Below, in pieces: positions 7,627 to 9,236 of a stretch of DNA of 9,236 nucleotides. Below the pieces are notes generated by a model. That model was not told the origin of the DNA. It ran no database searches and worked only from the letters and a program-made list of their open reading frames with translations. How positions within the stretch are numbered: the first letter of the stretch is position 1; every line of letters begins with the position of its first letter. The position numbers and the translations under genes were made by a program. This DNA is from a virus (taxonomy: Duplodnaviria > Heunggongvirae > Uroviricota > Caudoviricetes), in IMG/VR virus record IMGVR_UViG_2636415610_000005, positions 1 through 9,236 of that record. The stretch is one strand, 5' to 3'.

Positions 7627-8330
7627 TAACTGACGGTAACAGTGCAGGAAGTGGAGGTCACCTTGTTAACAGGGCTTGCTGAATCAGAAATCTCGCAGGT
7701 ATACGCACCGGCATCACCTGATGCTGCTGATGCCTTACTGAATGTTGCCGCCGTCTGTCCGGAAACAGGAGAACTACCTTTCTTCCAGACATAAGAATAA
7801 GGCGGCACACCACCGGCAGCCTCAACCACCATTTCGAGTTTCGCTCCGGCAGAAACCTGCAGCGTGCTGTTTAAATCGACCTTCACTTTCAGCGGCTCTG
7901 TCGTCAGCACAGGTTTACCTTTCAGGCGCAGGGAAAACGTTGCAGCCACAACACCATTGGTTCCTGCAGACCAGGTATGCTGACGCACCTCTGCCATAAA
8001 GGTAAATCCGTTTCCTGACGGAAAAATAACTTTAAAGCCATACGTGGTGTCATTGTCATAGGCACTGCGCAACGCGTTCTGGGCAGCATTGAGGTAAAAG
8101 TTGCCTGACATGGAAATCTCTGACGCGGCACCAAGACCGTTAATATTTTCCTGCTCAACAGAACACAGCGTGGTGACATCAATATCCTGCTTTTGTCCTG
8201 CGGTAAACTGCACCTCTTTGATTGTACAGCTCAGACCAAGATAGCTGGCAGAATCCAGGGTTTCTGCTGTTACCGGTGCAGACGAAATCATAATTTTCGT
8301 CAGTTGCGAACGCTCAAAATTAGAGGACAT
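7626..8330 (-). CDS. Major tail (tube) protein with a C-terminal Ig-like domain
   Basis: Lies between the U-like gene and G. Likely start is the ATG at 8330..8328 (MSSNFERSQ...), preceded by GGAG at 6-nt spacing; the track's longer start at 8381 would read through the upstream hairpin. The C-terminal ~95 aa carry Ig-fold hallmarks (PPYSYVW, DAGAYTC). Not obviously lambda gpV-like in sequence. Confidence 0.8.
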   Translation of the reverse strand: MSSNFERSQLTKIMISSAPVTAETLDSASYLGLSCTIKEVQFTAGQKQDIDVTTLCSVEQENINGLGAASEISMSGNFYLNAAQNALRSAYDNDTTYGFKVIFPSGNGFTFMAEVRQHTWSAGTNGVVAATFSLRLKGKPVLTTEPLKVKVDLNSTLQVSAGAKLEMVVEAAGGVPPYSYVWKKGSSPVSGQTAATFSKASAASGDAGAYTCEISDSASPVNKVTSTSCTVTVS

Positions 8331-8342
8331 ACTCGTCTCCTG

Positions 8343-8368
8343 AAAATAAAAAACCCGCCAGCGGCGGG
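8343..8368 (-). terminator. GC-rich hairpin (CCCGCC-GCU-GGCGGG) followed by UUUUUUAUUUU on the minus-strand transcript, between the U-like stop and the major tail gene start; intrinsic terminator-like element
   Basis: Minus-strand sequence read directly: ...ACCCACCCGCCGCTGGCGGGTTTTTTATTTTCAGGAGACGAGT-ATG. Six G-C pairs, a 3-nt loop and a T-rich tail immediately upstream of the ribosome-binding site. Confidence 0.5.
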
Positions 8369-8389
8369 TGGGTAAAATCATTAACGACC

Positions 8390-8734
8390 TCAGGCTATTA
8401 CCTGAAATTCAAGCGTGGCTCTGCTCAGACGGGAATCAGGATCATAACCCTGAGTTTTAGAAATAACGGAGGGTGCAAGTTGCCTTACCGCATCAAGCGC
8501 CTGCTCACGGATATCATCTGCGTCATCAGGTACTGTTGCCCAGACATCGATCTGCACGGTAATTCTGGATTCAGCCTGACCATCAAGCACATCAGACGCA
8601 GTGTCAGACACCACAGAAAATACCAGCCATGGCGGAGATACCGCAGGCTTTCCCTCCGTCAGCGGGACCACATAAGGATAAACCTGTCCTCCGGCCAGTT
8701 GAGACAGCAGGGAATACAGTGTGGTCTCTCTCAT
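8390..8734 (-). CDS. Tail terminator / tail completion protein (lambda gpU position; DUF3168-like by recollection)
   Basis: 114-aa ORF (MRETTLYSLLSQLAGGQVYPYVVPLTEG...RITVQIDVWA...) located directly upstream of the major tail protein. Its ATG overlaps the upstream stop as ATGA. Family assignment is by position and motif recollection only. Confidence 0.6.
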   Translation of the reverse strand: MRETTLYSLLSQLAGGQVYPYVVPLTEGKPAVSPPWLVFSVVSDTASDVLDGQAESRITVQIDVWATVPDDADDIREQALDAVRQLAPSVISKTQGYDPDSRLSRATLEFQVIA

Positions 8735-9177
8735 TTACTTAAGACCTCATCAATAGCCTGATTCATTCGCTGTATGGCAATCTGTGCTGCCAGTTCCTCT
8801 GTCGTATCGAAAGCCGGGCGAATGAACGGATGCGCGGGCATGTTTATCGTTCCCAGCTCCACAAAGCGCCAGTAAAACGCATTTCGGGGATCACTGGCTT
8901 TCATGCTGTTATCACTGTTTCCGGTCCGCAGGTTCCGTCCACGAATGTGGACACCCGAGATAATTTCCCCCCGACGCTTTGAACGCTGAGTGAGAACAAC
9001 CACATTTTTCTTCAGTTTCCCGGTTCGCTCCGGCGCACGTTCAACAACTGCATCCCGCATAACTTCAGCACCGGCACGGGTGGCATCGCGCAGTACCTTA
9101 TTGTTTTCTGCCCTGCTGAGCGTCTCCAGATCCCGTGCAATATCCGCCAGACCTGAAAAATCAAGACTGAAATCCAT
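8731..9177 (-). CDS. HK97 gp10-like head-tail joining / tail completion protein (lambda gpZ position)
   Basis: ORF with ATG at 9177..9175 (AAGGGG about 8 nt upstream); the track extends it to a GTG at 9180. The motif NAFYWRFVELGTINMPAHPFIRPAF is characteristic of the HK97 gp10 family as I recall it. Confidence 0.65.
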   Translation of the reverse strand: MDFSLDFSGLADIARDLETLSRAENNKVLRDATRAGAEVMRDAVVERAPERTGKLKKNVVVLTQRSKRRGEIISGVHIRGRNLRTGNSDNSMKASDPRNAFYWRFVELGTINMPAHPFIRPAFDTTEELAAQIAIQRMNQAIDEVLSK

Positions 9178-9236
9178 CACACATTCCCCTTCTGAGAACA
9201 GAGTATCTCAAGCCGTGTAGACTGGCCCCCTGAATC
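9177..9236 (-). CDS. 3' end of an upstream phage gene (possibly a head-tail connector); only ~19 codons in the window
   Basis: An open minus-strand frame enters from the window end and stops at TGA 9179..9177, overlapping the downstream ATG as TGATG (a translational coupling pattern). No product can be assigned from 19 codons. Confidence 0.3.
   Translation of the reverse strand, partial: DSGGQSTRLEILCSQKGNV

Follow-up and report, generated by a model that had tools for sequence, protein, structure and literature searches.

Why should the late operon of a tailed phage carry a strong, terminator-like hairpin immediately upstream of the gene for its major tail protein? The question arose from an initial annotation of a 9,236-nucleotide stretch of viral DNA (IMG/VR record IMGVR_UViG_2636415610_000005, positions 1 to 9,236; the window, in what follows), which had placed such a hairpin at 8343-8368 and had regarded it as unusual inside a tail operon. 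The window carries, on its minus strand, the tail module of an E. coli prophage that is lambdoid and of the HK97 type. Over the compared stretch it is 100% identical to E. coli APEC O78:H4 E12049 and to the induced phage vB_EcoM-606R7, and its tail region, including the hairpin, was matched in 1397 of 5426 E. coli genomes. Also encoded in this prophage is a "bacteriophage antitermination protein Q" (WP_001064896), whose gene is located ~11 kb upstream in NZ_CP126952, 5' of the tRNA, lysis and structural genes of the prophage. The features of the window are the following:

9180-8731, minus strand: HK97-gp10-like gene (Pfam, PGAP)
8390-8734, minus strand: tail completion or tail terminator gene, U-like, 114 aa, stop codon TGA at 8392-8390
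8370-8389, minus strand: 20-nt spacer between this stop codon and the hairpin, variable in sequence and constrained in length
8379-8381, minus strand: spurious in-frame ATG that opens a 251-aa ORF through the hairpin, out of frame in T7 variants
8353-8369, minus strand: hairpin, with 5' arm ACCCGCC (8369-8363), loop GCU (8362-8360) and 3' arm GGCGGGU (8359-8353)
8343-8352, minus strand: U-tract UUUUUAUUUU (U5AU4), directly abutting the stem and separated by CA from GGAG
8337-8340, minus strand: Shine-Dalgarno sequence GGAG of the major tail gene, followed by ACGAGU (6 nt) and the ATG
7626-8330, minus strand: major tail (tube) protein gene, 234 aa, with a C-terminal Ig-like domain, start codon ATG at 8330-8328
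Minus strand, split by an IS66-family element: chaperone G gene
5060-5464, 5461-5808 and 5857-7395, plus strand: ORFs of that element, ISEc22
4766-4476, minus strand: gene T (Pfam/PGAP)
4446-4467, minus strand: second hairpin element, AACCGC-UUCG-GCGGUU plus U6, with GGAG at 4440-4437 and then the tape-measure start
About 4429-1202, minus strand: tape measure gene (Pfam/PGAP), with M and then L next
170-868, minus strand: gene L (Phage_tail_L, E 1.6e-99)

The genes on either side of the hairpin were assigned by their domains. The tail completion gene matched Pfam PF11367 (Tail_completion_gp17, E 2.7e-11) and was named "tail completion protein gp17" by PGAP, and the major tail protein matched Ig_2/Ig_3 together with a weak Phage_TTP_11 hit. 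The gap between the two genes is 59 nt long and contains the hairpin. Two further observations concern the rest of the window. A plus-strand ORF of 236 aa (164-874) mirrors gene L, and ON470580 has a hypothetical protein there, on the wrong strand, instead of L. In addition, the gene for tail assembly chaperone G is interrupted by an ISEc22 element of ~2.45 kb (IS66 family, window 4979-7431), the ends of which read GTAAGCGTGCAGC... and GTAAGCGTCGTCTC...; the target duplication comprises 8-9 bp, TCCGTTGC(G). The chaperone G gene is intact in vB_EcoM-606R7, and almost all other E. coli matches end at the junction at 7432. Because of this insertion, the prophage copy in the window has probably lost the ability to build tails.

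We then studied the predicted fold of the element. Its stem has 7 bp, six of them G-C pairs, and closes a loop of 3 nt; the isolated 30-mer folds at −12.6 kcal/mol and the hairpin accounts for 86% of the ensemble. Only 2 of 200 shuffles of the 30-mer folded as well (z-score −2.8), and the z-score was −1.4 for the 81-nt context, so that the fold statistic alone, taken without the conservation described below, is only moderate. In a terminator scan of the window the hairpin ranked top of 15 terminator-like sites, compared with 8.3 ± 2.5 sites in shuffled sequences. A d'Aubenton-Carafa-style score of +38 was also obtained, but it was computed with modern energies, and we gave it no weight. The plus strand has no T-run after the stem and the element is therefore one-directional. 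Taken together, the GC-rich stem, short loop, stable fold, immediately 3' U-tract and untranslated position are those of an intrinsic terminator. The layout of hairpin, U-tract, GGAG and ATG read in the initial annotation was thus confirmed; its extent of 8343-8368 corresponds exactly to the GC core plus the U-tract and was correct as far as it went, since the stem can be extended by one A-U pair (8369/8353).

The fold was robust to its surroundings. When 60-250 nt of upstream transcript were included, the pair probability stayed at 0.93-0.98 with the sole exception of the 150-nt context, in which a long-range rival fold won by 0.1 kcal/mol. We regard this rival as an artefact, as it was absent at 120-140 and 160-250 nt and pairs non-conserved coding sequence ~140 nt upstream. 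The U-tract was predicted to be unpaired with a probability of 0.83-0.99. A search for an upstream segment complementary to either hairpin arm found none, nor was a conserved competing structure found. With no competing anti-terminator fold, the element would be constitutive, without a sensor, and a regulated attenuator is unlikely. An Rfam scan of the whole window in E-value mode gave no match. An RNase III processing site was considered and rejected: it needs about 20 bp or more of double-stranded RNA, and the stems are 7-9 bp long in all relatives.

To determine whether the element is kept by selection we relied on its relatives. The sample comprised 183 related loci with 78 distinct upstream sequences from about 12 enterobacterial genera, and included 160 viral contigs found with more distant tube proteins. 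The GC-rich hairpin, U-tract, Shine-Dalgarno sequence and ATG lie at the same spot in 76 of the 78 distinct sequences, which bears out the hairpin as a conserved feature of related prophages. The two exceptions are one degenerate contig and one lineage with a single C.A mismatch. This lineage (the L120 group) consists of 12 viral contigs that share one sequence, CCCGC-uucg-GCAGG, at −40 to −20 of the tube gene; the mismatch weakens the hairpin while the U-tract, the Shine-Dalgarno sequence and the start are kept, which makes it a natural partial-loss variant and suggests that full hairpin strength is dispensable. All close relatives (n = 80, 97-100% protein identity) keep the hairpin, followed by a U-tract of T6 or T7. 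Likewise, when one genome per species was taken, all 22 loci (58-79% identity) had the GC hairpin, U-tract, Shine-Dalgarno sequence and ATG in the same place; these loci come from Phytobacter, Serratia, Symbiopectobacterium, Leclercia, Buttiauxella, Pectobacterium, Raoultella, Klebsiella, Enterobacter, Kosakonia, Superficieibacter and Brenneria. The Shine-Dalgarno sequence is GGAG in all but one of the aligned sequences (n = 20), the exception being GCAG.

A uniform scan of 20 of these diverse loci (105 kb) gave a congruent picture. Every one of the 20 had a terminator-like motif between −42 and −19 relative to the gene start, and the coding strand carried 52 such motifs versus 11 on the other strand. 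Two further clusters were observed, one behind the capsid gene, ~1.5-1.8 kb upstream, and one ahead of the tape-measure gene, 1.5-2 kb downstream; the latter cluster (+1.5 to +2 kb) is present in the majority of the 20 loci.

What is conserved at the hairpin is the pairing and the spacing. We tabulated the stems by a structure-anchored comparison in place of MAFFT followed by RNAalifold, which on 20 upstream regions mis-registered the GC stems and recovered 4 pairs. The GC-core stems fall into eight types, all perfectly paired: CCCGC/GCGGG, CCCGCC/GGCGGG, GCCGCC/GGCGGC, CCGCC/GGCGG, CCGC/GCGG, CCCGGC/GCCGGG, CCCGCU/GGCGGG and CCCGAC/GUCGGG. Seven of them are Watson-Crick throughout and one has a single G-U pair. 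Depending on the lineage, one stem position is C-G, G-C or A-U and another is C-G or G-C. The loops are of 24 different kinds, many of them UNCG or GNRA tetraloops. Wherever a distinct relative has kept the hairpin, its U-tract has T at no fewer than 5 of 8 positions, and in most cases at 6 or more. Among 71 distinct relatives, 59 have 19-23 nt between the stop codon and the GC core (in the window, 20 nt precede the first paired base), and the interval between stem end and ATG is 18-24 nt in all distinct sequences; the sequence upstream of the hairpin varies between lineages. As a control, we swapped arms between stems: native stems had a mean of −9.7 kcal/mol and swapped stems of −6.5 kcal/mol, but 61% of the swaps were at least as stable as the weakest native stem, so this control discriminates native from chimeric stems only weakly. 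The covariation is real but modest, because every stem has mostly C in its 5' arm and mostly G in its 3' arm. Taken together, conservation, covariation and constrained spacing show that the element is non-random and under selection.

These results bear directly on the possibility that the hairpin has no role at the RNA level, being a chance structure or a short linker or recombination joint between the neck and tail modules. The modest z-scores and the position of the element at a mosaic boundary (see below) would fit such an origin, but the stems vary in sequence and yet pair, the loops vary and are enriched in stable tetraloops, a U-tract always follows and the spacing is constrained on both sides; a pure DNA-level linker would conserve sequence rather than pairing, and we consider this explanation very improbable.

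The boundary itself was evident from BLAST: nucleotide matches to HK97-, Stx- and Klebsiella-type phages set in at the hairpin (query 332-334, window 8369-8367), whereas the tail-completion gene of the window instead resembles those of mEp390, HK542 and LMessi. This switch places a mosaic joint in the 20-nt spacer 5' of the hairpin and suggests that the hairpin, the ribosome-binding site and the tube gene were inherited together. We also considered HK542 as a test of whether the hairpin is linked to the upstream gene or to the tube gene, but it proved uninformative, as HK542 also carries the hairpin.

By position and sequence, the hairpin is an already known element. The HK97 record (NC_002167) has a "terminator, putative" between the tail terminator gene (gp11) and that of the major tail subunit (gp12), at 6692-6719, with the sequence GAACCCGCC-agat-GGCGGGUUU-ucuuuuuccAGGAGACagcuAUG. 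The window and the HK97 type agree in position, gene order and stem core (ACCCGCC/GGCGGGU), in the U-tract followed by AGGAGAC and the ATG, and in a homologous tube gene, with ~71% nucleotide identity from the hairpin on. They differ in that HK97 has the loop AGAU and a stem of 9 bp, versus the loop GCU and 7 bp in the window, and in the upstream gene, which has diverged. HK75, HK106 and HK633 carry an identical putative terminator feature, and their blastn match begins at the hairpin with ACCCGCC...GGCGGGU...AGGAGAC...ATG aligned; in HK542 the feature is called a "rho-independent terminator". In Stx2 phage 1717 and Sakai prophage Sp6 the element reads AACCCGC-cgcgu-GCGGGUU-uuuuauuaucAGGAGG...AUG (NC_002695.2, about 1570769-1570797, in Sp6). 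Given homologous annotations in five HK phages and a homologue in essentially every relative examined, the view that the hairpin is unusual inside a tail operon did not hold: in tail operons of this kind a terminator shape is the rule and not an oddity. Our literature searches turned up no relevant experiments on terminators in the late operons of HK97-type phages.

The tube gene is not the only place where such hairpins occur. The second element of the window lies 8 nt after the stop codon of gene T and repeats the layout of hairpin, U-tract, Shine-Dalgarno sequence and start seen at the tube gene. Equivalent pre-tape-measure terminators are annotated as putative in HK97/HK75, and one lies on the plus strand of Sakai Sp6 at 1572221-1572240 of NC_002695.2. 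At this site the Shine-Dalgarno spacing favours the GTG at 4429 (PGAP) over the ATG at 4435 (ORF finder) as the tape-measure start. A third class of hairpin follows directly after the major capsid gene (8147-8170 in locus L002, 1000-1021 in L001, and ~−1.5 to −1.8 kb in L084-L105) and reads GGGGCGC-agaag-UGCGCCCC here versus GGGGGCGGG-gaaa-CCCGCCC in HK75/HK97. Its U-tract is often weaker, and this class may serve stability more than termination. The HK97-type records, too, have terminators marked at both of these sites, behind the capsid gene and ahead of the tape-measure gene. HK97 and HK542 have an extra hairpin right after the tube gene that the window lacks (14-nt gap).

The hairpin also settles where the major tail gene begins. 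The initial annotation had held that the ORF start at 8381 is wrong, and this was upheld: the U-tract is T7 in about a third to 40% of near-identical relatives, and this T6/T7 length variation breaks the frame, as the ATG at 8381 is in frame with 8330 in T6 variants only. The start equivalent to 8330 is used by PGAP and by the HK97/HK75 records, and Met1 at 8330 is invariant in an alignment of 20 homologues. In many records and gene calls the major tail CDS is nevertheless an extended one, of 251 aa or 281 aa, translated through the hairpin; examples are ON470580 (6251-7006), gp64 of NC_011357 (Stx2 phage 1717) and the protein clusters P0002, P0005, P0006 and P0008. In Stx2 phage 1717 the tail-completion gene is unannotated because the tube CDS start was extended upstream. 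Regarding the length variation itself, variants T6A and T7A, and occasionally T10 or interrupted tracts, occur in the U-tract (window 8343-8353) among prophages that are otherwise 97-100% identical, consistent with a mutational hot spot produced by slippage in a non-coding homopolymer.

From the structure, conservation, covariation and geometry of the element, the earlier annotation of its homologue and the presence of the Q gene, we infer termination, read-through by Q-modified polymerase and a biological purpose as follows. RNA polymerase without the Q modification would transcribe the GC hairpin and the U-tract and release its transcript there. Leak-through at tR', spurious promoters or read-in during lysogeny could supply such polymerase, and its termination would prevent expression of the tube gene, which is strongly translated, and of the remaining tail block. 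After induction, Q-modified polymerase from PR' would ignore the hairpin as it does tR', and the whole operon would be transcribed. The hairpin would then remain in the long mRNA, where the unpaired U-tract abutting the Shine-Dalgarno sequence may also aid translation, and the ~20-nt spacer may keep the hairpin clear of the ribosome that terminates on the upstream gene. We assign a probability of about 0.55 to this reading, in which a constitutive intrinsic terminator stops unmodified polymerase and is read through after induction. Its first part, that the element terminates ordinary E. coli RNA polymerase, is highly probable when taken by itself. The initial proposal that the element terminates unless antitermination is active is a reasonable one, as the prophage encodes a Q antiterminator.

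Q-dependent read-through of terminators is established in lambdoid late operons (PMC7547250). Late control in lambda is alike in that intrinsic terminators lie in a late unit under a Q antiterminator, of which the window's prophage has the gene; the difference is that tR' of lambda is a switch directly after the late promoter, whereas the element of the window lies ~9 kb further downstream, inside the structural genes. Phage SPP1, in which no Q-type antitermination is known, differs in that phage, host and sequences are unrelated and the positions are non-homologous. It resembles the window in that predicted Rho-independent terminators lie in gaps and punctuate the late structural clusters (PMC6316719). 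Several points call for caution. A fail-safe at this site leaves the lysis genes, which are located upstream, unprotected, and this counts against the reading, as do the weakened stem of the L120 lineage and a position that is odd for dosage control. The start of similarity at the hairpin and the packing of the element against the ribosome-binding site of the tube gene also mean that its main job could be tube-gene expression, termination aside.

The latter thought leads to the best-surviving alternative, a post-transcriptional or translational cassette for the tube gene in which the hairpin acts in the read-through mRNA and termination is incidental. The hairpin would block exonucleases or, once an endonuclease had processed the mRNA, form a protective stem at the 5' end, and the U-tract would be an S1-binding, AU/U-rich enhancer of translation that provides the very high yield of tube protein required. 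AU-rich leaders enhance translation and stabilise mRNA through protein S1 in E. coli, and intercistronic stem-loops give segments of polycistronic mRNA unequal stability, as known for REP elements in the malEFG, puf and pap operons. Like these, the hairpin of the window is a stable structure between cistrons whose products differ greatly in amount. Such a role would account for the inheritance of hairpin, ribosome-binding site and gene as one unit while the upstream genes differ, for the fixed 18-24 nt between stem end and ATG with an unpaired U-tract (0.83-0.99), and for the repetition of the layout before the tape-measure gene. REP-type stem-loops, however, generally have no U-tract and are placed after the abundant gene, whereas this hairpin precedes it, and a 3' hairpin shields the RNA upstream of it rather than the RNA downstream. 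In the tract, which directly adjoins the stem as a terminator requires, U predominates, so that it is more than simply A/U-rich; the tape-measure protein is low-copy and yet has the same design; and the co-inheritance could reflect recombination within the conserved hairpin-RBS sequence. We therefore hold a pure cassette to be unlikely, though it is the strongest competitor of the terminator read through by Q-modified polymerase.

Somewhat less probable still is a leaky attenuator that operates even in lytic growth, with a fraction of polymerases lost at each of three or four late hairpins and a stepwise fall in transcript from the head genes to the tube genes to the tail-tip genes. Conserved terminator-like motifs recur at three places, namely behind the capsid gene and ahead of both the tube and the tape-measure genes, and copy numbers follow roughly the order capsid > tube > tip. 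In SPP1, clusters of late genes are likewise delimited by stem-loop terminators (PMC6316719). The arrangement at the tube gene argues the other way: the site would lower the tube gene relative to the low-copy neck genes, the opposite of what is needed, and it makes no sense as a dosage control, given that far more copies are required of the tube protein than of the neck proteins encoded upstream. Moreover, Q-modified polymerase is highly resistant to terminators, and lambda builds the same kind of tail with a U-V gap of 7 nt and no hairpin.

On a par with the leaky attenuator we place a dual-purpose cassette travelling with the tube gene, which would stop unmodified polymerase and, besides, serve either as a 5' insulator with an S1 pad or as a processed 3' end. 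If this were true, very high and autonomous translation of the tube protein would be set by the cassette, which would be reused before the tape-measure gene, and module exchange would transfer the gene along with its own signals for stopping transcription and starting translation.

Far weaker is the proposal that the hairpin forms the 3' end of an Hfq-binding sRNA derived from the 3' end of the tail-completion gene, similar to the sRNAs of EHEC prophages. A GC hairpin with a U-tail is the standard Hfq-binding 3' module, and late regions of EHEC prophages encode the sRNAs StxS and the 66-nt HnrS (PMC7547250, PMC13502914). Against this, a scan of the window showed no promoter-like site upstream on the minus strand, and the upstream sequence is unconserved between lineages. 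[quoted passage not shown] Reading by eye the sequence 5' of the hairpin showed no CUUCU complement in either the window or the Stx/Sakai version, and this narrow host range compares with a window tail region found in about a quarter of the E. coli genomes searched; with no hha RBS complement and a very different host distribution, we judged it unlikely that the element is HnrS.

As a constitutive terminator that would be read through by Q-modified polymerase, the element leaves the current understanding of phage gene control unchanged. Its practical value lies in annotation: the hairpin shows where the tube gene truly starts, and numerous database entries wrongly extend the gene through it. 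For the family, it frames a small unsolved question, namely why HK97-type phages, unlike lambda, keep strong terminators in a Q-dependent late operon, a puzzle that is sharpest right before the most abundant tail protein.
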